A stretch of DNA of 64,000 nt from Bacilli bacterium (GTDB taxonomy: Bacteria; Bacillota_I; Bacilli_A; RF39; UBA660): contig JAVWCU010000001.1 in assembly GCA_036648855.1 (NCBI GenBank), positions 3,121-67,120 on the forward strand. The letters are read 5' to 3'. The notes below the pieces were generated by a model. The model saw nothing but the letters and a program-made list of their open reading frames with translations. It was not told the origin of the DNA and ran no database searches. A program made the translations under genes and the position numbers. Shown here in pieces: positions 13,774-64,000 of this stretch (position 1 is its first letter; every line of letters begins with the position of its first letter).

Positions 13774-14149
13774 TTTTATTTCCTCCTGTGACTAACTATT
13801 CTTAGCTAGTCTACCTAATTAATTTTTTGTTTTTATATTTTAATTTTAAATTGTTGCCTTAATACATTTTGAAACTATTAGCTGCCTTCGTTATGACAAT
13901 ATCAACAAAGTATGGCCTCTCCCCCAATATTACTCCCTAAATGGAAGTTGCATGGAACTGCTGCCAGTAATGTCATAACTGAGTTGATGCTTAAAGATAT
14001 TGCCATTGTCATGAGATTAATAAGTAACATTGTTGAATTTACCTTTCTTGATTTATTAATCCCCCCCATTGGTGCTACTAATGTATTAACCACATGCAAG
14101 TCGTAGCTCCTAGCAAGTTTTCCCCAATGATTAATACGATTGTCAAGCC

Positions 14150-14211
14150 TGTATAGGTGTCCAAAACTATTTATTAAATAATATTAATAAACACTTCAAG
14201 ACACCTATACA
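14150..14211. repeat. perfect 12-bp inverted repeat TGTATAGGTGTC ... GACACCTATACA separated by a 38-nt AT-rich spacer
   Basis: read directly from the sequence. Lies in the 610-nt intergenic region between 11593..13773 and 14384..14884. Confidence 0.7.
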
Positions 14212-14383
14212 TGACGTCTTTTAAACTTATGACCCCCACTAACATTGTCAGTTTAAAATTTTGACTAATTATTACAATCTAAATTGTGTAATATTTCCAA
14301 TGTTGAAGATTAGTAACATAACCTATATGATGTTGGTTATGACATACCGTGTTGAATTTTATTTTGTAATAGAGAAGCTATAG

Positions 14384-14884
14384 TTATAGTTCCTCTTGTT
14401 TTTCAAAGCTTGTTCCAAAGATATCTAAAAGATCAGTTTTAGTAACATTCCATTCTCCATTTGGATTGTATACTTCTACATAACCTTTTTTAACAAGATC
14501 ATTAAAGAATGATTTGAATGTGATCTCGCTATTAATTCTTTTAATTAATAAGCCTTCTCTAAGTAGATCCGAAATAGTTCCACATGCTATGTTAAAATGT
14601 TTATAATTTAATTCATAAGCATGAGAGTAGTCTAGCATCTTGTTTCGAAAATATTCTACCTCGTCTTCTAGCTTTTTAATTCTGATTTCCATACCTTGTT
14701 TTGATGATTCAAGACTGCAAATCTTTGTTTGTAAATTTCTTTTTAGAGCTGATGTTTCTCTTTTGTGAGTATAGTTTTTCATGTTCTTAGCCATCTTTCT
14801 AATATTGATAGCTAGACAAGTAGTAACAAGGCTTAATAGCCCTGTCACTACTATAAGTATCATACATAATACTTTATAATTCAT
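14384..14884 (-). CDS. membrane-anchored coiled-coil protein (166 aa; N-terminal TM helix)
   Basis: GGGAGGA RBS upstream of ATG 14884. TAA stop. Hydrophobic N-terminus LCMILIVVTGLLSLVTTCLAI followed by heptad repeats. Confidence 0.55.
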   Translation of the reverse strand: MNYKVLCMILIVVTGLLSLVTTCLAINIRKMAKNMKNYTHKRETSALKRNLQTKICSLESSKQGMEIRIKKLEDEVEYFRNKMLDYSHAYELNYKHFNIACGTISDLLREGLLIKRINSEITFKSFFNDLVKKGYVEVYNPNGEWNVTKTDLLDIFGTSFEKQEEL

Positions 14885-14915
14885 AATTGTTTCCTCCCAA
14901 ATATAATATTAGAAT

Positions 14916-15101
14916 CTAGTTGTTATTCACTAAAGCGATTAATCGTCTTAGATTATATTCAGCTTCTTCTATTATGTCAGATCCATAGTTGTCTATTAAA
15001 TCAGATTTTTGTTCATCATATATTCCTAAGTCTACAAGACGTAATACTATATGCTTCACTTCATCTAATTCATCTTTGTATCTGCTGGCAAGGACTCTCA
15101 C
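14916..15101 (-). CDS. small acidic hypothetical protein (61 aa), GTG start
   Basis: AAGGAGGA 7 nt upstream of GTG 15101. TAG stop. Confidence 0.4.
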   Translation of the reverse strand: MRVLASRYKDELDEVKHIVLRLVDLGIYDEQKSDLIDNYGSDIIEEAEYNLRRLIALVNNN

Positions 15102-15198
15102 TATACTATCCTCCTTTCTTTTTTATCTGTTTCGTCTTAATTTTCAAAGACTCATCAGGGAGCATCTACACTCCGACAGATAAGAATCAATAGCCAAA

Positions 15199-15741
15199 TT
15201 ATCTTCGACTATTAATTCTTTTAGTAGTTTTATATTTTTCAAAATATATATATTCACTTATAGAATAAGCTTCTATTTCATGAAGTCTTTTTTTATACTC
15301 TTTCTCATAATCAAATTCATATCCTGGTATACGATATTGAGCGGCATGTATTAATTCATGTATCAACGTTAATTCTCTTTCTTCATCATTACAATACTCA
15401 GCTATTTCTATAGAACGATACTCGGCAATTCCTCCTAGCCTTTCATCTTCTCCTATGTCATCTTTAGAGTACATTAAATCTCTTTCATCAAATACTTTAA
15501 ATAAATCAACTTTAGGTAATTCAAAGCTAGATTCTAATAAATTGACAGTATCATAAGTATTTTCTTCTTCGTTGAAGTAAGTAACTTTTACATTGTTTGC
15601 TACCATTATAGATAAGATTTTTATCATTTTGTCTAATACAACATCACATGGTTGTGAAATGTAGTATTTTGTTAATGCATTCACTTCAGTACATAATTCA
15701 ACATTTGTTCTAAAATCTTGTTGCATAATTCTTCTTCTCAT
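15199..15741 (-). CDS. HExxH zinc-metallopeptidase-like protein (180 aa), ImmA/IrrE/SprT-like
   Basis: motif LTLIHELIHAAQY. AAGGAGAA 6 nt upstream of ATG 15741. TAA stop. Confidence 0.6.
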   Translation of the reverse strand: MRRRIMQQDFRTNVELCTEVNALTKYYISQPCDVVLDKMIKILSIMVANNVKVTYFNEEENTYDTVNLLESSFELPKVDLFKVFDERDLMYSKDDIGEDERLGGIAEYRSIEIAEYCNDEERELTLIHELIHAAQYRIPGYEFDYEKEYKKRLHEIEAYSISEYIYFEKYKTTKRINSRR

Positions 15742-15844
15742 AATATTCTCCTTGCTGTTATTGGCACGTCAGCTTAGCCTATTTTTAAAAATGTTTAAAT
15801 AAACACAAAAAAGCCTAGTAAATTACTAGACTCTATCTATCTAT

Positions 15845-16300
15845 TTAAGCAGCTATATAGTTATAGTTACATGATAATCTTTTAGCTGTTTCATTAGCAT
15901 GTTTTTCATGCCAAGAGTTCTTGTAAGATACCTTCTTACTTCTTAACTCTTTTAAGCTCTTTTTGTATTTATCATGCATATACTTATCTTGATAAGCATG
16001 TGTTAATTCATGTATTATTGTATACACAATATCATCTATACTTCTTTTGTTATCAATGAATATGATAATTCTTTTAGTTAAATCATTATAGATACCATTT
16101 ATATTTGGACTTGTAAAATTCTTTTTATCTTTCGAATTTACAAATATAATCTCTGTATCCAACTTTAAATCTTTTTTAATACAAGTAGCAGTTCTTCTAA
16201 AGACTTTACATTCTTTTCTATCCATTTCATATTGCTTAACCAACATAGTCATGTTAATTAATTGTTTTGTGTATTTTATAGTTGTTTTCATTTTATTCAT
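15845..16300 (-). CDS. HExxH zinc-metallopeptidase-like protein (151 aa), paralog of 15199..15741
   Basis: motif YTIIHELTHAYQD, the same HEL[IT]HA[AY]Q signature as its neighbour. AAAGGAA RBS upstream of ATG 16300. TAA stop. Confidence 0.6.
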   Translation of the reverse strand: MNKMKTTIKYTKQLINMTMLVKQYEMDRKECKVFRRTATCIKKDLKLDTEIIFVNSKDKKNFTSPNINGIYNDLTKRIIIFIDNKRSIDDIVYTIIHELTHAYQDKYMHDKYKKSLKELRSKKVSYKNSWHEKHANETAKRLSCNYNYIAA

Positions 16301-16564
16301 ATTCCTTTTCTAATTGCTTTATTATTATTTTTATTTCTTTTGTTTCTTTTGCTTCCTTAATAGTCATTGCTATTAAGCTTATTGATACGATCATTGCTAA
16401 TACTATTATTAATATCATTGCTACATCTCCTAAGCTCTTTAAGGTATCTCCACCATTATGTTTTTGTATTGACTCTGTATTTTACACTGGCTTGTCACAG
16501 TCCTTGGCTACATTAATACAAATTAGGAAATAAGCTATATAAGCTCATTCCCTAATAACAGTAT

Positions 16565-17083
16565 CTATTTTGTAAGTTGTATATACTTATTTAGTTTTTT
16601 TTCTAAGCTAGTTGAATACAGTTTTAATCTTCTTCCTAGATGATTAGACGTAAAACCGTATTCAATTTCATACTCTTGATATGCAGCTAATAAGTATCTT
16701 ACTTTGTCTTCTAACTTATTTATTGCAATTGTTAGCTCTTCTATTTCAGCTTCTTTAGCTATTTCAGCTTCTTTAGCTAATTTAGCAGCTTCTCTATCAG
16801 CTTCCCATTTAAGGTCCATTTCTGCTAACCAAAGTCTATGAGCTTTATCTCTTTCTATCATATCTAAGAATTCTAAAGAGTTATCTTCTAATTTATCATA
16901 TACTTCACCAATAGAAAGATTGTTTCTTTTAGAATACTTTTCTACTATTTCATAAACAAAGTCTTCAGCTTCTTCTAAACTAATATGTCTATTGATATAA
17001 TCAAATGAACAAATATCAATAGCTATGTTTAAATTATCACTACATTCTTTACTTACTACTGGACTCTTACTTACGTATAACAT
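16565..17083 (-). CDS. hypothetical protein (172 aa) with KEAEIAKEAEIEE repeat and coiled coil
   Basis: ATG 17083 preceded by conserved class II leader (GGAGGTGTATTATG). TAG stop. Confidence 0.55.
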   Translation of the reverse strand: MLYVSKSPVVSKECSDNLNIAIDICSFDYINRHISLEEAEDFVYEIVEKYSKRNNLSIGEVYDKLEDNSLEFLDMIERDKAHRLWLAEMDLKWEADREAAKLAKEAEIAKEAEIEELTIAINKLEDKVRYLLAAYQEYEIEYGFTSNHLGRRLKLYSTSLEKKLNKYIQLTK

Positions 17084-17145
17084 AATACACCTCTATGGTA
17101 GTGGTACGTCATTGCGTATTTTTCCAATCTACCGGTTATATAAAA
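17084..17145 (-). promoter_or_regulatory. conserved class II 5' leader, copy 1
   Basis: plus-strand TAATACACCTCTATGGTAGTGGTACGTCATTGCGTATTTTTCCAATCTACC. About 75 % identical over 55 nt to 17792-17850. Confidence 0.45.
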
Positions 17146-17197
17146 AGAAGAGCAGATTATATCATCTACTCTTCTAATGAACTACTTATTACTACTA

Positions 17198-17791
17198 TTA
17201 GTAATTAATACTTAAACGAATCTTATCCATCTTCATGCTTATGTATCTACATATATCATTTGATAGCATTCCAAATTCATTTACTAATCTTTGATTAAAG
17301 TTAACAAACTCTTCAAAGCTTAACTCTTTAGCATCACATTCAAATGCTTCTATTACTTCATCTATATCAGTACTTAATGATGTAACGTTGTTAGCTATAC
17401 ATCCTTTTAATCTTGATATGTGTAATTCTACTTCTTCTAACTTTTCTTTAGCATAGCTATAAAATACTGTTCCAAGAGTAAGCTTTATAAATGCTTCTTC
17501 TAAAGGGAACTCTATTTTCATTGCTTCTAATCTAAATCCTAATTCATCATATTCATTATTAACAACTGCTTTAGAAAGGTCTTCTATAGCTTGTGCACTT
17601 AATAACTCTATTGTATCTATGATGTTTAAAGACTCATCTATAGTAGATGCTTCTTCATTTCTTACAACTACAACAACATCATTTAAAACAGCAGTAGCTT
17701 TAACAGCTTCTGAAGTTAATAAACTACTTAATACAGGTAAAACAACAACTAAAACAAGACAAACGATTAATACGATTAATACGTTTAACAT
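17198..17791 (-). CDS. secreted or membrane protein (197 aa from ATG 17791; signal-peptide-like N-terminus)
   Basis: ORF-track 17198..17815. ATG 17791 gives MLNVLIVLIVCLVLVVVLPVLSS and has GGAGGTG 4 nt upstream. TAA stop. Confidence 0.55.
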   Translation of the reverse strand: MLNVLIVLIVCLVLVVVLPVLSSLLTSEAVKATAVLNDVVVVVRNEEASTIDESLNIIDTIELLSAQAIEDLSKAVVNNEYDELGFRLEAMKIEFPLEEAFIKLTLGTVFYSYAKEKLEEVELHISRLKGCIANNVTSLSTDIDEVIEAFECDAKELSFEEFVNFNQRLVNEFGMLSNDICRYISMKMDKIRLSINY

Positions 17792-17852
17792 AATACACCT
17801 CCGTGATAGTGGCATGACGTTGCATGTGATTCCAATCTATCTGTGTACATTG
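17792..17852 (-). promoter_or_regulatory. conserved class II 5' leader, copy 2
   Basis: plus-strand TAATACACCTCCGTGATAGTGGCATGACGTTGCATGTGATTCCAATCTATC. Confidence 0.45.
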
Positions 17853-17895
17853 AGATTACTAACCTGCCTACCATCCTCCCAGGTAATCTCTCGTG
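17850..17895. other. large hairpin GAGATTAC...GTAATCTC (8-9 bp stem, 21-nt loop) in the divergent switch region
   Basis: read directly from the sequence. The region 17816-18469 has no credible ORF. Confidence 0.5.
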
Positions 17896-18469
17896 CATCC
17901 CAACCAATGCAATTGTATACTTAGTTACTTCCCCCATGTTCTCTTAGTATAAGTAAGAACTTGGTATGCTTATCTTTATATAGAATAAGCAAACTATCCA
18001 TCTATTTATTTATACAGTTAAGATAAGATCACTGTAGCTCCTATAGAACCCTTGCGGGAGAAAGAATAAGAGCTTTAATGAGACATTTTTAATGTTCCAT
18101 TAGAATAGCATTTAGCAACTGTGTGCGGTAAATCATAAGTGAATAGGCTTGGTGTTTTACTCCCAATGAATTCATAACTCAGTGTAGTATTAAGTTGACT
18201 GACATAATTGTTTCCACCAACTTAATATACCCCGGGCTAAAATTCTTGCCTCTTTTCCACTTATCATATACTAGGTACCCTCTCGCAAAATATAAAATTT
18301 TAAATATCATATACCAATTTTTAAATATTCTGACAATTATAATATATAATACAAAAATTACCTATAAAAAGTTTTCAGAAAATTCTGAACATTTAAAGAT
18401 ATAGTTAATATAAGACCATGTAAGAGGTTCTAATATAATATAAATAAGAAAAACAATGGAGGTAAAAAA

Positions 18470-44675: not shown

Positions 44676-47264
44676 ATGGCTACATTTAATTTAAATGGTT
44701 ATGATAGCTATTCTGGTTGCGATATCGTTGTTACTGCTAGACTAAATACTATAAGTGGTGGTAATGGCTCAGGAAAAGAAAAAGTATATACACTAGGCTC
44801 TATACAAACTCTTAGTATCTCCACACATCAAGATAAAAAACCTGTTAGAGTAATAGGAAGTGTAAATGCTCTTGATTATACAATGGGACAAAGAACAATA
44901 GCAGGTTCTTTAGTATTTGCTGTATTTGACCAACATTTTGCAACAGAGATGTTTAAAGACTTAGAAAAGATTACAGGTAAAACATTTTTCTTGCCAGATG
45001 AACTTCCAGCAATAGACTTAACAATTACTTTTGCTAATGAATATGGAAGAACATCTAGGATGGCTATATACGGAGTTAGAATAATTAATGAAGGGCAAGT
45101 AATGTCTATAAATGATTTATATACAGAAAACACTTATCAGTTTGTTGCTAACTCAATGGAGCCTTTAAAAAAGGGAACGCAAACAGGATCTAATTCAGAT
45201 AAGAATAAAGAAATACAAATAGCAACTAATTCTGATTTAGGAGATTCTAATCCTGTTTACAATGGAGAAGATATATTTACATATTCATTTGATAAAGATG
45301 AAAGCTCTTTAAAAAGAGTACTACTAAACGTAGATGTAGAGCAACCTACTTATGAAGGACAAGATGGTATTGCTAAATTTGGATTATCGCCTATTCAAAA
45401 AACAGGACTAGTAATTGTTTACAATCAACTTCAAGATAAAATAGAAACAGAGATATACATAACAAATGAACATACAAATATATATACAGTCTTATTAGAA
45501 CAAGGTTTATACTCTGCATGGTATGAAGACAATGGTCAAACTTTATCTAATACAGTAGTATTTTCTATAGATAAGGTAGGAAATTATAATATGAATTATG
45601 ATGATTCACCAATCATAGAAGATGTCAGTATTGATAAAATACAAATCTTATCCAACAATCCTTCTCATACAGCAGCGGTTTGTATTAATAATATATCCAA
45701 TAAATATTTAGAAATGGATTTATCATCTAGAAAATGTACATTTAAAAATCTAGAAGAAAATACAACTTATACTATTTATACTAAACATGAAAATTCGAAC
45801 TCTAAAAACATAATGTGTAAAACTTTAACAAAACAAGAAGAATATGTTACAGGTTTTAAAAGTTATGTTTATTATAATTCTAATTTATTATCTACAGATA
45901 TTGAAAACTACAAAGAAATATTAGATGAACTTAATAATGACCAAGAAGTATTATATACATTGTCAAAAAATAAATCTGATAAAGCTAAAGAAATTATATA
46001 TATGGCAACTAAATATAAAAATGAATTTAATAGAATCATTAATGAAGATAAAATTAATCTTATTCCAACTAAGAATTTAGATAATATATTTGGAAATACT
46101 TTTAAATTTAATAGTGGAGCATTAAAAGGAAATATATTTTCTGTTAAAAATAAAAAAGAATATTTTGTTTATTCAGAAAGTTATCCTATTGAAATAACTT
46201 ATAATGGAAAACAAAATTGGACATATAGTGCTACATCTATAGCTAACGATTATATAAAGTCTCCTAAATATGTTTATTATAATTTTGCTGAAAATGATAA
46301 AGCAAAAATAAGCAATTTATATGGAGAGGCTAATGTTTTAGATAAAATAGATTTAACAGACTATATTGCGAAAAATAGAAAATACTCAAATAATATATTA
46401 CAATGTTTAGCTGTTAAAGATAATAAGAATATAGATTTAAAATTATTAAAAGCTCCTCATGTAACATTAGATGAATATAGCAATATGATATTCGATGTAA
46501 ACTATAAAGACTTATTAGGAACAAGTAATAAAAACTACTTTATTTGTATATCCAATATTGCAGAATCTTTAGATAAAACATCATTTAGAAAAATTGGAAT
46601 AAAAGATAAAGATGAAAATATATTCGCAACTAAATATCTAACTGCTGCAAATCAAAATGATATTTTTGTAGTATGGATAGAAGATGAAAATAACAACATT
46701 ATATCAGACGTAGCTTTTTGTTCTATGTTAGAAGAAGTAGGAGATTTTAATATGACTCAAATTGAAAAAGCTATAGAAAAAATATTAGCACAAATGAGTT
46801 CATTCTCTTCTAAAAATAATATGTATGACATCATCTATTCTATAGCTAATGAAAATGTATCTATGAAAAACTTATATTATGAAATGGCAAAAACATTTAT
46901 AGACTTAAATATAACTAATTTAAATTCATCTTTATTTGACTTATTTAAAGTTAAATTTAATGAATACTATATAAATCAAGATAAGTATAGAAAAGTATTT
47001 TATAACAAAAATGAAAATAAAATAAGCTTTGAAACATTAAGTAAAAACGCACAATTAGTTAACATAAAGTTCAAACAAAATTATAATTATGAAATAGAAG
47101 TTAAAGATGAGCTTAGTACGACATTAGATACAGAATATGATTATCATTTAGTATATTTAATAGATAGTAATCCAATTATAAAATCTGGTTTTATATTTAT
47201 AGATTCTGGATACAAAGCTAATGCTCATAGTATTAGCATAGAGGAGGTAGAATGTAATGACTAA
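44676..47264 (+). CDS. tube-domain protein with ~670-aa C-terminal extension (862 aa)
   Basis: N-terminal 190 aa are paralogous to the tube protein (IDLTITFANEYGRTSRMAIYGVRIINEG versus FDITITFANEYGNKASTVLYGVELLNEG). AAAGGAGG 5 nt upstream of ATG 44676. No TGA. Confidence 0.55.
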   Translation: MATFNLNGYDSYSGCDIVVTARLNTISGGNGSGKEKVYTLGSIQTLSISTHQDKKPVRVIGSVNALDYTMGQRTIAGSLVFAVFDQHFATEMFKDLEKITGKTFFLPDELPAIDLTITFANEYGRTSRMAIYGVRIINEGQVMSINDLYTENTYQFVANSMEPLKKGTQTGSNSDKNKEIQIATNSDLGDSNPVYNGEDIFTYSFDKDESSLKRVLLNVDVEQPTYEGQDGIAKFGLSPIQKTGLVIVYNQLQDKIETEIYITNEHTNIYTVLLEQGLYSAWYEDNGQTLSNTVVFSIDKVGNYNMNYDDSPIIEDVSIDKIQILSNNPSHTAAVCINNISNKYLEMDLSSRKCTFKNLEENTTYTIYTKHENSNSKNIMCKTLTKQEEYVTGFKSYVYYNSNLLSTDIENYKEILDELNNDQEVLYTLSKNKSDKAKEIIYMATKYKNEFNRIINEDKINLIPTKNLDNIFGNTFKFNSGALKGNIFSVKNKKEYFVYSESYPIEITYNGKQNWTYSATSIANDYIKSPKYVYYNFAENDKAKISNLYGEANVLDKIDLTDYIAKNRKYSNNILQCLAVKDNKNIDLKLLKAPHVTLDEYSNMIFDVNYKDLLGTSNKNYFICISNIAESLDKTSFRKIGIKDKDENIFATKYLTAANQNDIFVVWIEDENNNIISDVAFCSMLEEVGDFNMTQIEKAIEKILAQMSSFSSKNNMYDIIYSIANENVSMKNLYYEMAKTFIDLNITNLNSSLFDLFKVKFNEYYINQDKYRKVFYNKNENKISFETLSKNAQLVNIKFKQNYNYEIEVKDELSTTLDTEYDYHLVYLIDSNPIIKSGFIFIDSGYKANAHSISIEEVECND

Positions 47265-49599: not shown

Positions 49600-49624
49600 A
49601 TAAAATACAAGAAGGTGAATTGAT

Positions 49625-52600
49625 TTGGCTAAAAAAAGAAGAGATAAAGAACGAGACCCCTCTTCAATAGAACAAGTTGCCAAAGTTGGAAAAGCTGCAT
49701 TATCTTTAGGGATTGGTGCAGCTTCTTTTACTAAAAAGGGATATGCTAGAAAACTTACTAGTGAAGTAGCACCAGCTTTAATTGGTACAACTAGAGCTAT
49801 TAAAAAAGATGTGCGTAACATTCGTTCAACTAAAAAAGGCATAAGCAAAAGATTAGATATCAAAGATTTAGAAAGCGTTTATAAAAGTCATTTAAAAGAA
49901 AATAAAACTTTTAAAAAACAATTAAAAGAAAACGCAATTGGTAAAAAGAAAAATGTTAAATTAAATATTGATGGTAAAAATAAATCTATCTTTGGTCAAT
50001 ACATAAACTATCAACAAGTAGTTAGTAATGAACTTAGAAGAACTTCTAGAGATTTGTATAGAGGTAAAAAAGAAACAGATTTTATAAATAATCAATTAAC
50101 AGGTTTATTTAAAAATAAAAATACTGACCATTTAAGAGAAGCTGCTTTTGATGCATTTGCTAAAATAGAAGAATTTACAACTGTTAATTCCAAGGGCGAG
50201 AAATTCTTTTCTCCTTTCATAGATGATAGTATTAAAAGATTAGATTTTGACAAAAAAGAAAGACAAATATTCTTAGAAAAAATATGAAATGAAAAAGAAA
50301 AAATTATCAAAGATTCGAAAGAAGAGCAGAAATACTCTGGCATAGAAAAGAATATTAAAAAGTTACTTGAAGAAAAACTTATGAAAAGTAAAAAGCAATC
50401 TGATACAACTTTTGGAAAGCTATCATCATTAGTAAAAAAAGTAACAAATAAAGACGTAGATTTAGAAATGGAAATATTGAATTCTCGTGGATTAACAGTA
50501 GGAGAATTCTTAGAAACTATAAATGATTCTAAAAATAAAGATATGTTTGATATGTCTCAATTTAATGTTAAATTAAAAAATAATGTTGGTAACAAAAATA
50601 ATAAGTATCAAGAAAAAAATATTATTGAAGAATTGACAGAATATGTAAGAAAAAATGAAGATTTCAAAAATGTATTAGTTGATGATTCATTAAGAATCGG
50701 TAGAGATGGACAAATATTTGATACTAATGATATGGATAATTTAAATGCAGCTATGTATAGAAAGTTTTCATCTTCTACTTTAGGCTCATTATTTTGGCAA
50801 ACAGATGTTAGATTAGGAAGAGAAACTCCGATACTTGCTCATGTTAGAGCAGGGCTTACAGGATCAGAAGCTGTTTATGAAGCTGGTAATAAAGGAGAAA
50901 CTTTACTTAAAGAAGGTAAAGTCATGTTAGCTAATGGTAGAACTAGATCAGCTGATTTATATGAAGTTAAATTAAACAGCAATGACGAATTAGTTTTAGA
51001 TATGAATCCTTTATCTGTTGATGGTTATATAAAAAATAATAAACATGGTAAAATGTCTAGAGCAAATAGAGAAGTAGTAGGTTCTAATAGAGATCCACTA
51101 GCAGCTATAGACGATGAATTTTTACAGCTACTTGATATAGGACAATCAGGCTCTCCAACATTAGCAGATAAATTAAAATCTAGATTTTCAAAAGGAAGCA
51201 ATTCTGATTGAATTAAAAATATTATAGATAGAACAAAGTCATTAGTTAACGATGATATGTCTGTTCAAGAAAGAATAGATATAACTGCTAAAAACAAATT
51301 AGCAGGTTCATTAACGAATGACGACTATGCAAATCAAATACTATATGAAGAATCTAGAGCAACTATAGCTGCACAATTACTTAAAGATACTAAAGAAGTA
51401 TCGTCTTTATTAAATGATTATACAGCTATGCACCAAATAGATTCTAATACTATAACTTCTTTACTAAATTCAACTATAGCAAATGATAATGGAGAAATCA
51501 CTAACTTAATTAAAGATGAACACTCAAGAAGAATATTACAAGCTTTAAGTAGCTTAGATGATATGAATACATCTCCTATGAATATCTTATCAGCGATATC
51601 TGCGAAAGAAGGCTCTTTCACTTTTGAAAAACTTTACAATAAAGATTTAGAGAATATCATAAATAGAGGACTTGTAAATACAGACCATATTATTCATATG
51701 CAAAATATTTCTCAACTTAAATGGGCAAGTTTCATTAATAATGAAGCAACTAATGTTATGGAAATAAAAGATATTATTAGAAGAGAAAGTATGAAAGAAG
51801 TATTACTAAGAGAAACTGCTGGAGGCATGGGAGTAACTGGAGATGTTATTTTTAATTCTGAAAGTATTAGTAGTTTAGAGAAAATACTATCTCATGAGAA
51901 CTTAACAAAAGAACAAGCTAATAATTTAAGATACGTAGCAAACTGGGGAGTAATGCAAAGTTCTTTAGGTATGTACAACGATACAGATGCTACTTTAAAC
52001 CTTTTAGATATTATGGGACCAGATGGTACAATAACTAAATTTGAAAACTTAATGAAAACTAATCCTAACTTTAAAGCAGAGTATAAAAGAATGTTAGATG
52101 ATATGTCATCAAATTATAATATATTTGATGCTGGAACTATAGGAAATATAAATGAAAACTATGCAGATGAATTTGCTAACTTTACATATAGTAAAAAATC
52201 AGCTCTGCATATTGATAACATATTGAATATAAATTCTATAAATGATGCTATCAAGTTAGCTGGTCAAGCTAAAAATGAAATCTTAGCTGGAAGACATGAC
52301 CTTGAAAATTATACTACATTAACTCAAATACCACAGTTTATGGTATCAAGACTTTCATGGGGATTAGAAGATTTAGGCTTAGGCTTTTCTAATAAAAGCA
52401 CAAGTTCTACTTTAGAACAAATAAAATCAATTGCTTTAAAAAGAGTTTTACCTGTAGCAGCAGCATTGAGCATATATGATTATATGGATTATGAATCAGA
52501 AAACTTTACAGGTGTATCTATGACAGGAGCAGCAGCTAATACTTTATCAAATTTTGACATAGCTTCTAGAAAATTAGCTTATTCAACTGGAGTAGGACAA

Positions 52601-55600
52601 GCATTAGATTGGTTTAAAGAATCGTCTATTGTAGGAGAATACTGGACAGGAACAACTGATTATCAAACAGCTGAAGAAAGAGAAGAATGGTATGAAAATG
52701 GATACCAAGCTGTTAGAGGAGGGCGTTTTTGGGGAATAGGTTCTACTTCAGAATTCAGAGGCTCTGCTATTCAATATTATCAACCTAACTATTTGAAAAG
52801 AGCACATTCTAATTGAAAAGAAATAGGTATATATGGAGATGCAGAAGAGAAATTCTCTCACAGCTGATTGCCTTCACTTAGACATCCTTTATCACCTCTC
52901 AAAGCAGCATTTGACCCATATTGATTAGAAAAAAAGAATATGGAAGATAGACCATACCCTATGACAGGTAAGATGTTCTCTGAAGGAACTCCTTGGGGAG
53001 CAGTGCTTAATCCTACTATTGGAGAAATATTAAAACCTGTTAGAACTTTGCCAGAAGTTAGAAGAAGACTTGGCAATGACGGTAGGGATATAAGATCTGT
53101 TGTAGAAGGAATAAATGAAAGAATAAAAAATAGAGCTAATGAAAATGATGATATGCTTATCATTAAAGGTACTGATATTAGAAATGCTTCTTATATTCCT
53201 TATGCTTCTCCTAATGATGGCTCTATGAATATTACATTTAGAGATGGAATGGCTATGGCTCCTGGAATAGGATATATGGAAGATGTATCTAATTTAAAAG
53301 GTTTTGTTCCTGCTAATGGAGAAATCAATGGAAATATGGATATGTCTTTAGTTGATGGAGATACAGAATTTGAACAAGCTGCTATAGGTATAACACAAGA
53401 ACTAAAACAAACTTCATATGATTCTAATTTAGTAGTTAATGATATATTATCAAATATAAATAAAGGTATTAAAAACTTAGGAGCTAAGTTTACATCTTAT
53501 GCTGGCGGCTCAAATAGTGCTTATAGTACAGATGGAACTATGCCAGATTTAGCACAAGGGACATATGTATATCAAAACTTAGTTAATCAAAGAAAAGTAT
53601 TTAATAGCAATTATTATGCTGATAACTATGACTATAAAATGCTTGATAGGAATATAGCAAATAATTACATGAGAGATTTTACAGGTTCTGTAAGAGAATT
53701 ATCTGGTATATATAATTTCTTAGGTGGTCTTGCATTTGGTGAAGATAGTTGAACATTTGAACTTGAAAATGCAAATAATATGACGAGTTTTTCTAGGCAT
53801 TTCTGAGATTCACAAGCTGGTGGAGTTGGTGGAGAATTCATGGAGATTGCTAGACGTTTTTTTGCATCAGAAGATAAATCTAGAATTAAATATAATCCTC
53901 TTAAAAATAGTATGGAAGAATGATTACCTTCAAGATTCTTAACAGGTGACCCATATACTGAACTTCCTAAAGGAGAAATGAGACTTCCTGGCAAGGGCTT
54001 TGAATCTATACATGATTTACATCCAGACCAGTTCGGTGAGTATGGTGCCTTTGATAGAATGAAGATACTTGGAGATGTTGCTCCTACTTCTGAAGAATAT
54101 AAGATATGGAGAAACATAGCTAGAAATACTATATCTGACGAAAACTTAATGAAGCAAATGGATGATATAGAACACCGTGCTCAGAAGATGTCTTCTAAAC
54201 ATGAGTTTTATGATTATAGATATTACAATAATAATCTAGATACTAAACACGGTATTGTTAAAAGTTGGAATAAAAATGTTGTAACTTTATCAAGTGGAGA
54301 ACAATTGAGACTTGGTGGTATTAATTTAACAGAAGAGGCTGACTTATCACAAGTGTTAACCGTTGGTCAAAAAATACATTACAGCTCATCTAAAGATGCT
54401 ATTAAAAAATTAGAAGATGGTATAGTAACTAATGCTGTTATCTATGAAAAACAAGGAGCATTTGGAACTAACATAAATAAATCTTTAGTAGATATGGGAA
54501 TGGCTGAAAGAGATGATCAAGATAAATCTGCTATAGGATATATGGCTAACGCTTCCAGTCTTCAACAAAGTTTAGGTATGGTCCAAGAAATGATAGGACA
54601 TGCCAATATCCCATTTGTACATAACAAATTCTTAAATATAGAAACTGCTAGAGAGTCTTATAAAAATGAGCATGTATATGGAACAACATTTGCTACTTGG
54701 GATCATCCAATAAAAGGTTTTGTTCAACCAATGTTAAATCAAACGTTTGGACAAAGTATGGCACAACATGCACTTGCAGTAGGCTCTTCTGCTTTATACT
54801 TTAGACTCAAAGAACATGGCACTAGCAAAGGTGTTAAATTTGCAGCAGGAGCAGCCATGGCTACAGCTAACCCTTCGGTTCTACTTGGTATGGGAGTAGA
54901 GTTTATAAATAAATTAGGTGTCAATGCAGTAGGTGGAGGAAGCAATTCTTTAAATATAGAAAGAGGGGCAAAGATAGGTTCTGTTATAGGGACTATAGGC
55001 TGAGGGCTTGCTAATGCAGAAAACCCATTAAAAGCAACTGCTTCATTTGCTATAGCTGGTGAAACTATATCAACTTATCTTAAAGCTGGAGAACATTATG
55101 GAGTAGGAAAAGGAGCCTTAATAGGAGCTGGTATTGGACTTGCAGTATCAGCAATAAAGAATCCTGGATTCTCTAAAGAGATGTTTAGAAGTAAGTGAAT
55201 ACCTAAAGATACTGAAAAGAAATATGAAATGGATGAATACTTTGATAGGCTTGAATACATAAAAAATAAAGGTTTATATGAACAAGCTTCTTTAAGAGCT
55301 GGATTGTTCGAAGGTAATCATACCATAAAAGCAGTATTTAGAAAATTAGATAAAAATAAAGAAAAAATAGGAAGGCTTACAAAAAAGGCTGAAAAACTTA
55401 GTAATAAACATTCAGCAGGTGGTTATGAGTATGAACAAGAAATGCTCAAAATTAATGAAAAGATAATGGCCCTTCAATCACAACAAACAGCTTTTAAAGG
55501 TGGTAAGTATACTAAGGCAGCAGTAGCTTACAAAAAAGCAATGGACTCTACCATATATGGAATGAGCGAAGGAGCAACGCCAGACGAAATATTATCTTCT

Positions 55601-56152
55601 GTACCTGTTCAATATAAAGACCACTTTAAATCTTTCATAGACGAAAGAAGTAAAAGTGAACGAAAAAAAATATTAAAAGAATTACCAGAATATCTACGTA
55701 AGCCTTTACAAATTGCTTGGGGTGAAAATGTTGACAAAATAGATAGTAATGGAAAGTTTTTCAAAAAACATGAATTACCATCTATGGCATGAAAAGGATG
55801 AAAGCCTAGCATAAATCTAAAACATGTTAAGATGAAAACTATTCAAAACGAAGGTATGTTGCTTTCTAATTTTGGATATTACGATTCTGAAAAATCTAAA
55901 ATGGAATATCATATGGCACCTGATATAAATAATTTTGATAAAGGCGGTAGCAGTGGCTTAAGTTATATGGCCAGTATGACGGCAGCATTGTCAGGAGTTG
56001 GAATGACAGTACAAAACATTACTGTTGAACCAACATCCGCTCCAGGATTATGAATAGTTGGAGATATAAAACAAACTGCTAAAGATATAGGTAAGATAGG
56101 TGATTATGCAGTAAACTCAGGAATTCAAACTCTAACTTCACTATTATTCTAA
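49625..56152 (+). CDS. tail tape measure protein (2175 aa) with 13 in-frame TGA
   Basis: seven track ORFs (49625, 50381, 51257, 52940, 53978, 55229, 55832) are all in one frame. Every gap was checked codon by codon and contains only TGA, never TAA/TAG, until TAA 56150-56152. Gly-rich hydrophobic stretch GALIGAGIGLAVSAI near the C-terminus. Sits after the chaperones. GAAGGTGA RBS with TTG start. Confidence 0.65.
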
Positions 56153-56166: not shown

Positions 56167-56463
56167 ATGAATATAACTCAATTTTTAAATCTTGATGCGA
56201 CTATAATAGTAGCAGCTATAGGATTGTTAGGAACTGTTTATACAGTTAGGACAAACACTTTATTACAACACAATAAACAACTTATGGAAATGTTTGAAAT
56301 TCAACAAGATGAATTAATTAAGCTGAAAGAGCAACATTCAGAGGAAACAAGAAGGCTTGAAGAAAAAATATTATTGCTAACAACTGAAAATACCGATTTA
56401 AGAAAAGAAGTTATAGATTTAAAACTTACATTAGGTCGTATTAACAAAGAGTTTAGTATATAA
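56167..56463 (+). CDS. small membrane/coiled-coil protein (98 aa)
   Basis: N-terminal TM helix IIVAAIGLLGTVYTV. AAGGGG RBS. Followed by a strong terminator. Confidence 0.5.
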   Translation: MNITQFLNLDATIIVAAIGLLGTVYTVRTNTLLQHNKQLMEMFEIQQDELIKLKEQHSEETRRLEEKILLLTTENTDLRKEVIDLKLTLGRINKEFSI

Positions 56464-56480
56464 AAAATATCATGAAATTA

Positions 56481-56508
56481 AGACCACTAATTAAGGTGGT
56501 CTTTTTTC
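56481..56508 (+). terminator. rho-independent terminator
   Basis: AGACCAC-TAATTAAG-GTGGTCT followed by TTTTTT. Confidence 0.65.
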
Positions 56509-56555
56509 TGTAATATAATAACAACTATAATTATTGTTTAGAAAGGAATGATAAC

Positions 56556-59500
56556 ATGGCTTATAATAAAAAGACAACCGTATATGAATCTAATTATGAT
56601 TTAGCTTTAAAAGCTAAGTTAAAACAACAAGCTATCAAAAAGATGGAAGATAGAAACACTATGTCTAAAGAAGATATGTTTAACTATTTAGAATACTTAG
56701 CTCCTGGTAATGATTATGTAAAAGAAAGCAATCTAATAATCAAAGCTAGTAAAAATAAAGTATTGAAAAATAAAAGTTTAAGACCCGATTACAAAGACGT
56801 TAATGATATATTAAAAAACTTAAAAGAATATAATTTTTATGACATTATATCTAATAAAAACCAGACAGGTTCTGAACTGATTAAAAAGACTATAGATTTC
56901 AATGGGAAGATATTTCATAGTAATCAAAAAGGAGGTTCATCAAATGAATCTTTAGGTACATGGAATGAATCTTTTAGAAATTTCACTAGTTTAAAAAAAC
57001 AAGCTAAACTAGGAAATGAAGCAACTGTATTTGGATTTGACTTAGAGACTGTCGGAAGTTCACTTCCTGAAGGCATGTGGAAAGCGGATCACATAACAGA
57101 GTTTTCTATGCAAGAGATGAATTTAGCAACTAATGAAATATTAAGAAATGACACTATTGCTATTGGTCTAACAGAAGACCAAGGTAAGAAAATTATTGAT
57201 GATATAGAAAAAGCTATTAAAAGTGGAACTTTAGAAAAGAACGAAAATTTAAGAGTTTCTGCTATGAGATATAGTTTATATGGAGATGATAAAGTTACAT
57301 ATGAAAAAACAGCTGAAGGATATTATAAATTTACAAATTTTATAGATTCTAAAAAACATGAAATGTATAACATTGAAAAAATCAAAGCTGGTGTAAACAA
57401 GTTCGTCTCTATGGGTAATGACACTGATTATATAAATGGAGTAAGAGCAGATCACTATTATGTAGGACAATCAATAAAACATATGAAAGACAAAGTAGTT
57501 GATAAACAAACTGCTATGTTATTAGGACAAAATCATTTAGGACATGATAATCCTATTATGCAATATCAAATGTCTTTATGAAATGAACTATATAAAGATA
57601 AAACTAATATGTTCGAAAATCTAGATTTAACAATGTCACCAAATCAAACAATAGATTTACTTGGAGGCCTTAGACTTCATTCAGAATATTACGATACAGG
57701 AGATTTATATCCTAAAGCAAAAGGATTAAATATGTCTGAAGTTAAAACTATTAGAGGGCAAGAATACTTAGTACAAAGTCACTTAAAAAAATGGTTTGAA
57801 CAAAAAGGATTAAAACCCCATTTAGCAGAAGATGATGTTACAGCTTTACTTGGATTATTTACTATGGATTCAGAAATATTAAAAAGTGGAACTTTAGTTG
57901 ATTTAATAGGCGATAAGATGTCTAAAGTTAATTATAAAGAAACAGCTTTAGAAACAAATAAGCATATTTTAAAAGCTAAAAAAAGAGCTGGTCTTTATCA
58001 AGGTAAAGGTTATTTAAATTTTGCTAATGACAAAGAAGGGAATATATATACTGCCAGTGATCATATCTTAAGTGATACAGATGGATTTGCTAAATCTAAC
58101 GGAGGAGTTATTCATAATGATTTCAATGTTGGTGCAGGAATCAATAAAGGGGCATTTTATGATTTAAAAGATATACAAGAAATAACTATTGATGACAATA
58201 TAAGATCTCAAATAGATAAAGTAGCACCAGAGTATTCTGGAAATAAATTATACCATGTTAAACTTGGAATGATAACTTCAGATAATCACAAAGATACTAG
58301 ACTTGGAAATTTAGAGCAAAATATAATATTAAAAAGTGAACAAGAATTACAAGGATTCTTAAGTTCTACATTTGATGTTGTAGCAAAAAGAGATGAAAAT
58401 GGAAATATACAAATAGCTAAAGAACATATAGAAGATTTTGATATTAGAAAACTATCAGATGTTAAAGGAAGAGCTGTAGCTAAAGATGTTAATAAAAATT
58501 ATGATAAAAATCATAATGAATTATTAGAATCAGCTGTAGAAGCTCATAATAAAAAGCTATTAGTTTCTAGAGCTGAAAATTCATTTTTACAAGATGATTC
58601 ATTTAATAAATTATCAAAAGCTTTAACTTTAAAAGATGACTTAAAAGATTTCTTAGAACAAGAAAATGTAAAAGTAGAAAGTTTAAAACAAAAAGAAATA
58701 AACCAAATTATGTCTGCTAAAGTTGCTAGTGGCAATATGCCTTTAGGTTTAAATGAAGTACAGCTTGAACATGCCAAAGAAATAATAAATAATGCATTGT
58801 CTTACAAAAAAGATTATGCAGATCCTAATTCAATTACAAGAGTACTTGATTCATCTATAGACAACTATTCATCAGCTATGATTTATGTTGAAAACAATAA
58901 TAATGTATTGTCTAAAATAATAGATACATTAAAACAAAGTGAAATGTTTACAAAAGAAGATGGTAGATATAAAAATTCAACTAAAGAATATAGACAAGAA
59001 GTATTCAATAGAGTTTACAAAAAAGTGAAAGAAGAAACTGCAGAACATATTTATAGAAATCTAAATGTTAACAACCCTATAAAAAACAAAAGTATTTTAA
59101 ATGACGAAACTTTACAAGCTGCTGTAAGTGAATTTAGAAACATATATGAAGTTGATTATAACAAGATAGCTAAAACTCCTAAAGTAAACTTTGTTAGTAT
59201 TGCTAAACCAGAAGAATTACAAAATTTAGTAAAGTTAGATATATCAACAAAAGGTGCTTCATATAAATTAACTGATGCTGCTATAGATGCTGTCTATGGC
59301 AAAGATTATAAAAGAAAAATAGATAATGCTCATAAAAATGTAGCTGTTGCAAAAATGTTTAATTTATTAATGGAAGATGAAAATTTAAAAGAAACAGATG
59401 CTTTTAAAGGTATTATGTCTAGATACGGATATAATGAAAAGACTAAAAGTTTTAAAGAAAATATAAATCATATAGATATATCTGAGCGTATTGTTTCTGG

Positions 59501-62500
59501 CATGCAATCATTAAAAGAAAAGAATGTTACAGCTGGAATAGTTAATACAAAAAGAGCTTTTATGAAATCTTTAGAAGGAACCTCTGGTTATACCAAAGCT
59601 TTAAACAGCGAAGAAGTATTAAATAAAGTAGATGATATAGCAAAAAGTGTTTTAGATAATTTAGATATGACAATTATAAACACAGCTAAACCAAAAGATC
59701 AAATATCAGAATTAGTTGAAAATAAGATATTAAAACATTATATAGCTGATAGCAATACTGTTGAAAAAGCTCAAGATTGGGTTAATAATCCTCAATTAGA
59801 AATGTTATATAAAAAAGGAAAAAAAGATTTAAAAGAATATCTTACTGATACAATATATGGATTTACTAAATTAGGAGCAGAAGTCTCTGTACAAGAAAAT
59901 GGTGCATTAATTGTTTCTAGAAATGGTGAAACAAAAGCTTTAGAAACAATACCTAAAATACTTTTAAATGATAAAACTTTATACACAGAAATAGGCAGTC
60001 AAAAGTTTCAGTTTAATAGAGTGTTAGATATTAAAGGTGGTACAAGATTAGAAGGAGATGTAAAGACTACTATAAGTAGTATCAATAAGTATAGCAATAG
60101 TGCTTATGTTGATAAGTTAGCAGAAGAATTTGATCTTAATAAAGTTTATGATTCTTTATGGTCACGTATAGGAAGAGATATAAATGAAATAAGAAAAGGT
60201 TCAACTATTAATGGATTCAGTGGAAATGATATCATATCGAATTACAATGTTGATATGGGTGAAATCAAAAATGTATTATATGATATATTTAATAAAGATG
60301 GCAATCATTATGGATTATTTGATAACATAGATTTCCCTGATAAACAAATACAAGAAACATTAAAAAAGAAACTAGAAAATGTAGGTCCTAATAAACTTGA
60401 TAATAAAGGACAATTAAAAGAACTAGGGCCAGATATTACTAGAGATATTGCAAAAGATACTATTCATATGTTGCAAGAATTAGCTAATAAACAAGGTTTT
60501 ACAGATGACTTTAAAACAATCGTAGCTCAATTAGGATTATCTGGACAAGAAAAAAGAGTAGCTGGATTAACAGCCTACTCTGGAATAGAAAGACCTACAA
60601 ACTCTGTATTTGGTGTATTCGATAATGTACAAAGACCGCCTATTACTCAGTCTGGTAATGCAAAATTCTTAAGAGAATCTGATATAGAAAAAGCTAAAGA
60701 TTTAAATGTATTAGCTGGAAACGTAATTAGTTCTGCGTCTATGAATGCTAAAGGATATAGAAATTTTGATGGGGTAGGAAAAGCTTCAACAGATGTAATG
60801 ATGGATATATCTTATGTATCTACAAACGCTTTACATGTATTAATGGAGAGTAACTTTGAAGACGTTATTAATAAATCTAGTGTAGAATATGGAACAAAAG
60901 AAGCATCCAAAAAAGCTATGGAGCATTTAAAGAGTACACTATCTACATTTGAACAAGAAAGAATTATTGACTCTAGAGTTCATGAAGCTGTATATGGATT
61001 ACAAACAGCTAATACTCAAAAGCTTAGTAGAAATCTAGATGCAATAGGTATGTCTAAAGAACTTACAGATGAAGAATTCAAAAAGCAATTTGATTTCATA
61101 ACTAATCATAGAGGCAATTTTTCATATTCTAATGGTAAGCTAGAATTTAAATCTTCTGTTGGTACATATGTTAAACGAGGAGAAGGAACTATACAAACTA
61201 AAGGTTTTGCAGATTTACCTACATCGTTCTCTTCTAAAATGAAAGATGGAGTATTTAATTTTAATTTCTATAATGAAAATGGAATGAAACTTAGAGATAA
61301 TGAAATAAATAATTTAATAAATGATAATATAGAACACTTTATTAAAGATGGCAAACTTGTAGATAAAGCAGCTTTGCCAAAAATATTAGAAGATTTATTA
61401 GAAACTAAAAATATTAAAGGTCAATATGCTATAGAAGATGCAGCCGCTTTAGGATACGCTAAAACAATGACTAGCGGTGCTGAAAAAGGTATGACTGATA
61501 TTGTATATGCTACTACTGGTAGATACAATAAAGAAATAGAAAAAGTCTTTAAAAATATTGGCATGTGGGATGATGTTAAAGCAAAAGTTTTAACAGAAGA
61601 AGGAACAGATGCTATATTGAAAAGAGGTATGGATAGATTTATAGGTAAACATACAGATATGACTCCTGAGCAAAATATACTTCATGGAACTAGCTTTAAA
61701 AATATTAAAGAATTAAAATCAGCAATGGAAACAGAAAGACATATGAATTCTAAATTATTGTTTGAACATGTACTTGGCGGTAAGACTCATATGTTAGCAA
61801 ATGATAATATATTAGGACATGAAAACTTTGGAGCGATGTATCAAGGTTCTTTATCTAAAGCTATAGATCTTTTTGGTAAAAATCATAAAGATGGTTCAGA
61901 TGGAGCTATTAAAGAAATTATTGACATCATGAATAATGGTGTTGAAAAAACTTTAAAAGATGGTACTGTAAAGAAGATAGATGCTTCAGAATTTCAATTT
62001 TTAGAAAACTGGAATCTTAAAGATGGTAAAGTTGACATAGGAAACATAGGAGTTCAATATAAAAATGGTCGATTCCATATCAATGAAAATTTTTTAACTA
62101 ATCCAGACAATGTATCTAATCTTAATTCAAAGAAATTCAATAATTTATTAAGAGAGATAGATTCAAGATTTGCTAAAGACGACTCTTCTGATGATAGATT
62201 AGTATGGAATAATGTTTATATGCAAACTGGAGATGTGGACGAAAAAGGAACACCTGTTTTAAAAAAAGTAGATGAAGTCGTTGGTTCATTTTTCACTAGA
62301 GAAATAGATGGAAAAAGAGTAATACTTGGTACTCAATCTAGAGAAAATAATAAATATGTTACAGATGTAGAAACACAATCTGGAGTAACAGATGAATATT
62401 TCCAACTAAAAAAAGCTATTAAAAAAAATAAAATAGATTTAATAAATAATCAAAAGTCATTAAATGAAACTGATGATAAGCATTTAAAAGCATCGCTAAT

Positions 62501-63416
62501 AGAAGAAAAAATTTCATTAGAAGCAAAAGGGCATAAATTAGAATCTGAATTAAGCTCTTATGATGGTGCTGTAAAAACAATGAAAGTATCTGATCAAGAA
62601 TTATCTATTTATAACAGAGTTGCTATAACTCAATCCCATGTTAATAAAGTCAATGATTTAATAAGCGAAGGTAAAATAACTGATGAATCATTAGCAGTAG
62701 ATTCTCTAAGAGGACATGTTATAAAAAATGTTGATGGCCAAATAATGTTAGAAGGCCTTGGGCTTGAAAATGAATTAAATTCAAATAAAGATGTCTATAG
62801 CAAAGGTGGAATTAGAGTACTAGATCCTTTTGTATCAAGATTAAAAGAGAAATTGCTTTTCAATGAATTAGAGGATGAAGTATTAACAATGAAATATGTT
62901 AATAAACATCCAGAACTTCTAGACATATATAATAAAGCAGATAGCAGAGGAGAAACAATAGGAATTAATAAAGCTAAAGAAATACATCAAGGACAGCTCT
63001 CTATAGATTCATATAATTTCAATCTTAGCTCACAAACATCTGAACAAGTTAAAGCATTAGAAAATAAAGGTTTTAGAAGAACTAATATAAATGAATTATC
63101 TTTTGATGCTGATGATGTTGCTACAGAGAATTTATTAATTGACTTTGGTGAGGAATTTAAAGAACATAGATATTTAGCAGTTCCTGGCAACGGTAAATCT
63201 ATAATGGATGAAGATCTTAGAAAAGAAAGTCAAAATCAATTAGCAAGTCTTCAACATAGATACCAAGAGTATGCATCTTACAAAGGAAAAGATCCTGAAA
63301 AAACAGAGCAATTATGAAATAACATCATTAAACAAAGAGATGATGTCATGGATACAATAGAAAATGAGATGTACGGTAAGCATGGTATATTCCATAATGC
63401 TTCTAAAGTTGAAATA
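56556..63416 (+). CDS. giant virion-associated protein (2286 aa); two in-frame TGA (57579, 63315)
   Basis: fragments 56556..57581 and 57609..63317 share a frame. Reading TGA 63315 as Trp adds 33 codons to TAG 63414-63416; checked. Lies downstream of the tape measure gene. Confidence 0.6.
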
Positions 63417-64000
63417 GATAATGCTTCTTATCGTTTAAAAGCTTCTGGTATAATAGGAGACCAAACTAATCCTACTCTTAGAAACTATGCTTCTCATAAT
63501 GGAGTTAATGTTATAGATTCTTCTAAAGCTGGAGTATTAGATATCGCTATAATAGATGGAAAGACAATAACTGAATTAGAAAGCAAAGGAGTTTATCATG
63601 ATTATAAATTTGTATCTAGAGATCAAATGGATAACATGGGATTCTTTAGAGAAGACAGGCTTAAACAATTTGGATTTGAAGATGATGCTAGCAGTACTGC
63701 TATTGAAAAAATGGAGGATTTTTTAAAGACTCATGGTACTATGGATTTATCCGACCGTTATCCAAATACAAAAACAGGTTCTATCTCTACTGCTAGAGTA
63801 TTTTTAGACAGCACTTTAACTGGAAACCAAACTAAGGTTTCAGCATCGTTAGCTCTTAAAGCTAATGGAGACTTTGATGGAGATTCATTCTCTTCTTTCC
63901 ATTTAGAAAAATATGATAGCGAAGGTCGTAGAATAGACGGAGCTTATTATTCTAAAGTAAAAATTGATATAACTAAACAACTCAATGACGAAGGAATACT
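63368..64000 (+). CDS. two-barrel RNA-polymerase-like protein, N-terminal 211 aa (gene runs off the right edge)
   Basis: Frame +2, open from TAA 63329-63331; ATG 63368. GKHGIFHNASKV (63374-63409) resembles the beta motif GRHGNKGVISKI. NGDFDGDSFSSFH (63863-63901) resembles the beta-prime NADFDGD..H motif. No stop to the window end; checked codon by codon. Confidence 0.5.

Follow-up and report, generated by a model that had tools for sequence, protein, structure and literature searches.

Two-barrel RNA polymerases (RNAPs) that travel inside the virion have been demonstrated experimentally in few systems, namely the split enzymes of PhiKZ and AR9, gp66 of crAss-like phages, and gp96 of P23-45. 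The protein gp66 of phage phi14:2 (PDB 6VR4) is a virion RNAP that is delivered together with the DNA and transcribes the early genes, and two proteins next to it are likewise part of the virion. In P23-45, gp96 is a two-barrel RNAP fused to the tape measure protein (TMP); it has been proposed to pass through the tail on ejection and to transcribe the pre-early genes. A survey of jumbo phages recorded only split enzymes of the PhiKZ type and single-chain enzymes resembling YonO. Here we describe a giant phage gene in a 64,000-nt stretch of DNA (hereafter the window; contig JAVWCU010000001.1, positions 3,121 to 67,120 of the forward strand) from the assembly GCA_036648855.1 of a Bacilli bacterium. 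On balance, we favour the view that its product is a functional RNAP fused to an exonuclease, carried in the virion and ejected into the host.

The gene starts on the plus strand at the ATG at 56556, 8 nt behind a ribosome-binding site (AAAGGA, 56542-56547), and the N-terminus of the protein lines up with those of its homologues. Translated to the end of the window at 64000, this frame contains not a single TAA or TAG in 2481 codons. As 132 TAA and 53 TAG would be expected from composition, this argues for a real and very long coding frame; the remaining two frames of this stretch hold 239 and 259 TAA or TAG codons. Under the standard code, the sole interruptions are TGA codons at 57579-57581 (codon 342) and 63315-63317 (codon 2254), which leave open reading frames (ORFs) of 341 amino acids (aa; 56556-57581) and 1902 aa (57609-63317) with translation table 11. 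The use of this table explains why the gene appears in the NCBI record as RR406_00400 (341 aa), RR406_00405 (1902 aa, ending at the second TGA) and a remainder, which makes at least three "hypothetical proteins". With TGA as a sense codon, no stop occurs up to 63998 and the frame is still open where the window ends (56556 to 64000, residues 1-2481), i.e. it comprises at least 2481 codons. By homology, another ~560-610 residues are expected to follow the DxDGD motif described below, and the full product is expected to be a multidomain protein of ~3,000 aa. Taken together, the positions from 56556 to beyond 64000 almost certainly form one phage gene in which TGA encodes tryptophan.

An earlier sequence-only reading of this locus had placed the start correctly, and its description of a very long frame, among the largest ORFs and rich in Lys, Asn and Glu, agrees with our data: the gene is the largest of the window and its product is dominated by K, L, N, D and E (K 10.8%, N 8.4%, E 7.4%). 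The proposed end at 63416 after 2286 aa has to be revised, given that the codon at 63414-63416 is ATA (Ile), that TGA codons interrupt this stretch under the standard code, and that the frame continues past 64000. The RNAP-like ORF said to overlap its 3' end forms the last part of this gene and is read in its frame, since the homologues are single proteins spanning 99-100% of the query. A -1 frameshift, suggested for 63350-63370, is unnecessary because the RNAP-like part shares its frame with the giant ORF and the join is simply the in-frame TGA at 63315-63317. Likewise, the statement that no motif could be recognised no longer applies, as the N-terminal part carries a canonical set of DEDDh exonuclease motifs. 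The gene does not lie immediately downstream of the tape measure gene either: a 98-aa ORF (56167-56463, plus strand) separates the two, and the tape measure itself was named by position.

The recoding of TGA extends well beyond this gene. Plus-strand genes of the window contain 38 in-frame TGA (distributed over 21 genes) and 61 TGG among 14,080 codons, while the 19 minus-strand genes have 15 TGG and a single TGA, located in a doubtful 73-aa ORF, among 4,279 codons (Fisher p = 0.011). Gene ends in the window (n=48) comprise 41 TAA, 7 TAG and no TGA. Judged by these counts, TGA is a sense codon in the plus-strand structural module. Read in this way, the pieces of the upstream "tape measure" join into a frame of 2182 codons with 14 TGAs, and several other plus-strand genes become longer. 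In an alignment of 29 homologues, the column of the first TGA of the giant gene holds Trp in the ten closest ones and, for the majority of the more distant ones, Phe or Tyr, and this TGA is further taken as sense because it falls inside one enzymatic domain, between two motifs of the exonuclease (see below). Close homologues carry Phe, Leu, Met or Ile at the second TGA, and no homologue is interrupted there. A scan of the window for tRNAs found none, and neither suppressor tRNA nor code-change genes are present in it. Two other explanations were considered and rejected. A special codon context for TGA was dismissed as the 39 in-frame contexts share no common motif, and ATGA stop/start overlaps at TTATGAAAT sites were dismissed as the ATG in the +2 frame meets a stop immediately. 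Several relatives are free of in-frame TGA across all three giant genes of the array described below, and others (L002 and L019) have many, which makes the recoding lineage-specific. A matching pattern has been reported in gut phages that infect Firmicutes (Borges et al., bioRxiv 10.1101/2021.08.26.457843). As in those phages, e.g. the Agate clade, TGA is reassigned to Trp in structural and late genes while the other module is spared, close relatives use the standard code, hosts are Firmicutes, and genomes are large.

The catalytic signature of the beta'-like barrel lies close to the end of the window (63753-63887, plus strand). It consists of DRYPNTKTGS (R2401-x-P2403) and, 35 residues further on, NGDFDGDS (D2439, D2441, G2442, D2443; nt 63870-63884). 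These six residues (R, P, D, D, G, D) do not vary across the family alignment, and the pattern [RK]xP-x35-37-DxDGD occurs in 30/30 members; its counterpart in E. coli beta' is R425AP...D460FDGD. A pattern of the form [RK]xP-x(20-100)-DxDxD has been used as a filter for two-barrel RNAPs (PMC10770324, Supplementary Data 4). As the window cuts the gene 38 residues past DFDGD, the polymerase region of an orthologue was modelled with AlphaFold2 (model 1), yielding a predicted local distance difference test score (pLDDT) of 70.6 overall and of 85-94 near the motif. A Foldseek search of the PDB with this model gave 46 matches at E <= 1e-3, all of them to beta'/A190, i.e. the largest subunits of RNAPs. 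From this predicted fold, the region ~2400-2443, together with the ~600 residues that follow it in the homologues, is likely to be a beta'-like RNAP module. Beyond the window, residues 1092-1141 of model 1 are predicted to form a 50-residue helix with an invariant AKTGLAATGxVN, a segment that resembles beta' ARKGLADTALKTANSGY and might represent the bridge helix. It was located 195-240 aa past DxDGD in the three members checked, and the pattern missed the three most divergent members, P0031, P0033 and P0034. The 64-kb window showed no further genes for RNAP subunits.

A hallmark of two-barrel RNAPs is a pair of conserved lysines in the second barrel. A candidate region for such a beta-like barrel is found upstream of the beta'-like signature (60618-61496, plus strand), where three motifs stand out by invariant or near-invariant columns: FDNVQRPPITQSGNA (60618-60662), TFEQERIIDSR (60945-60977), and AKTMTSGAEKGMT (61458-61496), which includes K1636-x7-K1644-G. 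The order N-V-QR-PP (aa 1357), T-FEQ-ER (aa 1464) and K1636-x7-K1644-G equals that of E. coli beta with N-M-QR-Q (684), N-FED-S (812) and K1065-x7-K1073-G. Moreover, K-x7-KG is present in 27/30 members and the spacing of its lysines is the same as in E. coli. In a second structure model covering window residues 1150-1950 (model 2, pLDDT 81.3), both lysines are situated in a beta-rich, high-confidence part, and six of the top fifteen weak Foldseek matches (E 2-5) were second-largest RNAP subunits. These motifs suggest that residues ~1355-1650 are a second, beta-like barrel with the two lysines.

At the other end of the protein, residues ~150-435 (57003-57860, plus strand) very probably constitute a genuine DEDDh 3'-5' exonuclease domain with a complete catalytic set, as indicated by motifs that are invariant in 23 sequences and by a profile match. 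The motifs are ExoI with FGFDLET (D162/E164, 57030-57050), ExoII with GQNHLGHD (N326/D331, 57525-57548), and ExoIII with HLAEDD (H422/D427, 57819-57836); the first TGA lies between the latter two. A profile of residues 100-500 (A3), searched against the PDB with hmmsearch, matched the zebrafish Plex9.1 chains 9mrd_A and 9mrc_A (E = 7.5e-4 and 7.7e-4) and 9l85_A (8.6e-3). In these chains of ~195 aa, three ordered blocks (FDLETtG, GhNxxxFDxPi, HxAxxDv) fall on ExoI, ExoII and ExoIII. Plex9.1 (9MRC) is a relative of TREX1 with 3'-5' DEDD exonuclease activity. The query had no significant match to the Pfam family RNase_T (PF00929), and hhalign of A3 against E. coli DnaQ gave a probability below 1%, with ExoI and ExoII nonetheless in register. 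Both results can be explained by long insertions between the motifs, as the spacing is ~165 aa from ExoI to ExoII and ~95 aa from ExoII to ExoIII. The domain thus shares with DEDDh exonucleases of the DnaQ/TREX1/Plex9 type the invariant D-x-E, N-x4-D and H-x4-D as well as the Plex9.1 profile match, but differs by its large insertions, its escape from RNase_T detection, and its fusion to a giant phage protein.

A search with the full product encoded in the window found 34 proteins. Homologues are single proteins of 2,850-3,170 aa; the full-length ones from this search (2,851-3,065 aa) are 21-49% identical over 96-100% of the query, and three distant ones matched over only 14-55% of it. The homologues continue into a C-terminal hydrophobic, transmembrane-like helix and a conserved end domain of ~100 aa. 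When a profile of the polymerase core was run exhaustively against 1.84 billion representatives, the family comprised 254 clusters (50% identity) at E <= 1e-3 and 149 at E <= 1e-30, nearly all with lengths of 2,700-3,300 aa and a similarly placed core. On the other hand, Pfam and PHROGs returned no match for the 2481-aa product or for six divergent full-length homologues, and the database records of family members list no Pfam domain. Megablast and tblastn searches of 50,697 GenBank phage records, for which the product of the window, P0033 and P0018 served as queries, did not yield a member, nor did a search of 72,556 plasmids with the homologue P0012, and a profile of the N-terminal alignment returned only fragments of the family from a database of 5.8 billion proteins. 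That a family of 254 clusters has escaped Pfam, PHROGs and GenBank phages is a consequence of standard-code annotation, which shreds the gene and its neighbours.

The genomic neighbourhood is that of a phage tail. Genes for a portal, a protease, a major head protein and a 946-aa tail sheath precede the giant gene in the window, and the sheath identifies the phage as contractile-tailed. Relatives were found on IMG/VR contigs (132-265 kb) and on one contig each of a metagenome-assembled genome of Clostridium sp. and a Paraclostridium dentum assembly. In 12/12 relative loci, a TMP-like gene of ~2,100 aa is followed by the giant described here and by a third giant of ~3,000 aa, and this array sits in a conserved position between sheath/tube genes and baseplate-wedge genes. 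The TMP-like gene of the window (49604-56152, plus strand) is one frame of ~1,920-2,180 codons with 12-14 in-frame TGAs that breaks up into six ORFs under table 11. Its standard-code orthologue (L010:2924-9397) had no match in Pfam or PHROGs, for which reason its identity as a tape measure is one of position. In the third giant, Pfam detects a DNA/RNA non-specific endonuclease domain (PF13930, E = 1.8e-22), and the next recognisable gene downstream encodes a baseplate wedge protein (phrog_6, E = 1.6e-11). BLAST comparisons among the three giants revealed no common domain. As a separate observation, the third giant (L010:18864-28004; also in L002, L004, L015 and L019) matches the 1,954-position PHROG 20474, labelled 'endolysin', with E = 6.7e-156. 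The P. dentum locus (L019; GCA_051651445.1, JBOFSH010000242.1, 117 kb) holds the whole array at 44% identity, and its three giants, with 18, 3 and 9 in-frame TGAs, are fragmented by standard-code annotation. As this assembly belongs to a named species, the locus may give access to a culturable system, provided that the strain can be obtained.

Compared with gp66 of crAss-like phages, the protein is likewise a giant single polypeptide (>2,000 aa) located beside giant neighbours in the structural region, with a conserved trio of genes and the aspartate triad of RNAPs. However, it has DxDGD with the glycine of cellular RNAPs where gp66 has DFD(I/V)D, and no sequence similarity to gp66 is detectable; membership of the gp66 family is defined by a DFDxD motif whose fourth residue is Ile or Val, together with homology to gp66 orthologues, and the giant protein therefore falls outside it. 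Its best structural matches are multisubunit beta' and not QDE-1 or gp66, an N-terminal DEDDh exonuclease and a C-terminal hydrophobic helix have not been reported for gp66, and gp66 comes from a crAss-like phage of Cellulophaga baltica, in contrast to the Firmicutes host and contractile tail here. With gp96 of P23-45 it has in common an RNAP-like module, here putatively two-barrel, tied to genes of the tail lumen and tape measure, but here the module does not form the N-terminus of the TMP-like protein and resides in a separate gene that carries an exonuclease and lies downstream of the TMP-like gene, with the 98-aa ORF and a terminator-like hairpin in between. The multisubunit enzymes, both cellular and split as in PhiKZ/AR9, resemble it in R-x-P...DFDGD, in the predicted fold matching beta', and in the order N-x-QR / FE(D/Q) / K-x7-KG. 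They differ in that the putative beta-like half and the beta'-like half are here joined in one chain, in the order beta to beta', within a protein of 3,000 aa that has no Pfam RNA_pol match. The exonuclease in cis, the spacing of ~790 residues between the putative barrels, the C-terminal hydrophobic helix and end domain of the homologues, and the context of contractile-tailed Firmicutes phages are new.

The minus-strand genes (1-18000) are spared from the TGA recoding, which is limited to the plus-strand module (18400-64000). PHROGs gave essentially no match for ten of these minus-strand genes. Among them, a motif of ~29 nt was found, TCATAA-N6-ATTTTCTA, which becomes TAGAAAAT-N6-TTATGA when read in the direction of the minus-strand genes and has 19 matches vs 6.0 +/- 2.5 expected. 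It ranges over 2526-7718 (plus-strand positions), is densest at 5826-7718, and has all of its 12 best copies on one strand between 2.5 and 7.7 kb. Several copies precede the genes 5082-5801, 5915-6358 and 6478-6957, at a distance of 25-60 nt from their start codons, and five lie in the intergenic region 6957-7836, which also contains two 97-nt repeats (7404-7500 and 7570-7666). The motif is a candidate for a phage-specific early promoter of the TGA-free genes.

From these elements, a mechanism can be proposed in which the giant protein would be built into the virion, either in the tail or in another ejected compartment, and would enter the cell with the DNA. Its beta-like and beta'-like regions would together form a single-chain two-barrel RNAP that would transcribe the TGA-free early genes before the cell is switched to reading TGA as Trp. 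The exonuclease may act at entry, by resecting DNA ends to provide a single-stranded template or by degrading nucleic acids of the host or its defence systems, and the C-terminal hydrophobic helix and ~100-aa end domain known from the homologues might anchor or target the protein. As the giant gene itself contains TGA, like the structural genes, it would be translatable only late, and a polymerase produced at that stage from a gene of the tail region would most simply be one destined for the next cell, where it would be mainly of use.

Several points speak against this proposal. Virion location and ejection are deduced from gene position and precedent, the polymerase model was built on an orthologue 49% identical to the window protein, and the candidate bridge helix was assigned by resemblance and a predicted long helix. 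At the sequence level, Pfam finds no RNAP similarity in the query or in six homologues, hmmsearch of the PDB with profiles of the full-length protein (A1), the polymerase core (A2) and the middle part (A4) returned only noise, and hhalign of A2 against E. coli beta' and of A4 against beta gave probabilities below 1%. Foldseek found no PDB match for model 2 at E <= 1e-3, the putative barrels are ~790 residues apart vs ~140 in gp66 and QDE-1, and the recurrent motif in the DNA might just as well represent an array of iterons or operators. The evidence for a polymerase fold is, moreover, equally compatible with a late-made enzyme that is not packaged, be it a non-virion RNAP or a polymerase for replication or repair, and active in the same infection cycle; PhiKZ and P23-45 also possess non-virion two-barrel RNAPs. 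We consider this unlikely, as the gene is found between TMP-like and baseplate genes in 12/12 relatives and its recoded TGA would place translation after the late switch, too late for transcription of middle and late genes. In addition, the size of ~3,000 aa, the C-terminal hydrophobic helix and the nuclease-bearing neighbours resemble ejected polyvalent proteins. The tail-module position would also suit a structural or ejected tail protein, such as a second TMP-like protein, a hub or a polyvalent effector, in which the polymerase-like part is a relic or not a polymerase at all and the exonuclease is the sole enzyme. A second barrel lacking Foldseek support, the missing RNAP similarity at the sequence level, and a transmembrane-like helix in the homologues, as in membrane-inserting ejection proteins, fit such a protein. 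It is nevertheless improbable, because sequences that are only 19-49% identical keep R-x-P, D-x-D-G-D and K-x7-K with little or no variation, which points to purifying selection on a catalytic site, and because Pfam and PHROGs detect no fibre, hub, wedge, baseplate or TMP domain in the query, six homologues, or the L010 orthologue.

The fusion of a DEDDh exonuclease to a polymerase is the classic layout of a proofreading DNA polymerase, and PolD shares the two-barrel core, which raises the question of whether the protein is a PolD-like DNA polymerase with a proofreading 3'-5' exonuclease in cis. This appears very unlikely given that all significant structural matches are largest subunits of RNAPs and none is PolD DP2, that ~900 residues lie between the exonuclease and the first polymerase motif, and that the gene is part of the tail and not of the replication module. 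We give hardly any credence to three separate genes (341 aa, 1902 aa and RNAP-like) with TGA as a stop or as a site of occasional readthrough or frameshifting. Table 11 ORF calls, the separate annotation of RR406_00400 and RR406_00405, and an in-frame ATG within 9-10 codons after each TGA would agree with this arrangement, but the first TGA would sever the exonuclease between ExoII and ExoIII at a site where the closest homologues have Trp. Furthermore, 21 plus-strand genes together hold 38 in-frame TGAs, no gene of the window ends in TGA, and relatives using the standard code encode one uninterrupted protein. Of the roles that the sequence-only reading had offered on the basis of position, an injected protein or part of a virion transcription machine is favoured by the RNAP signature, the predicted fold and the tail module, while an ordinary fibre or baseplate component is disfavoured, as Pfam and PHROGs show no such domain.

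Some further features of the window deserve mention. The 98-aa ORF that precedes the giant gene has a hydrophobic N-terminal segment and a coiled-coil-like C-terminus and is followed by a terminator-like hairpin with a T-run (56480-56510, plus strand; hairpin 56480-56503, 9-bp stem), of which one was found vs 0.1 expected in shuffled sequences. Just past the sheath gene, an 862-aa protein (44676-47264, plus strand) matches PHROG 9206, 'major head protein', with its first 180 residues (E = 4e-35); this match is odd for a protein at such a position and may reflect a tube-related or decoration-like domain or a wrong PHROG label. The strand switch near 18 kb coincides with a change of sign in both GC-skew and AT-skew. 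A direct repeat of 65 nt (78% identity; 17072-17136 and 17780-17844) adjoins the starts of the minus-strand genes 16565-17083 and 17198-17815, which are the two genes closest to the switch.

If the reading of the giant protein as a virion-borne RNAP with an exonuclease in cis is correct, it would add a lineage to the known virion two-barrel RNAPs, one that looks structurally nearer to cellular beta' than to the QDE-1/YonO clade and is joined to a nuclease. It is conceivable, and we propose it only tentatively, that the protein is the founding example of a widespread family of single-chain beta/beta'-type RNAPs with an active exonuclease in cis, encoded in the tail module and ejected by large contractile-tailed phages of Firmicutes, which would transcribe TGA-free early genes from phage-specific promoters. 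Such a family would bear on the viral diversification of RNA polymerases and on the means by which phages initiate transcription independently of the host's own polymerase, and it would tie the timing of transcription to stop-codon recoding in a testable manner.

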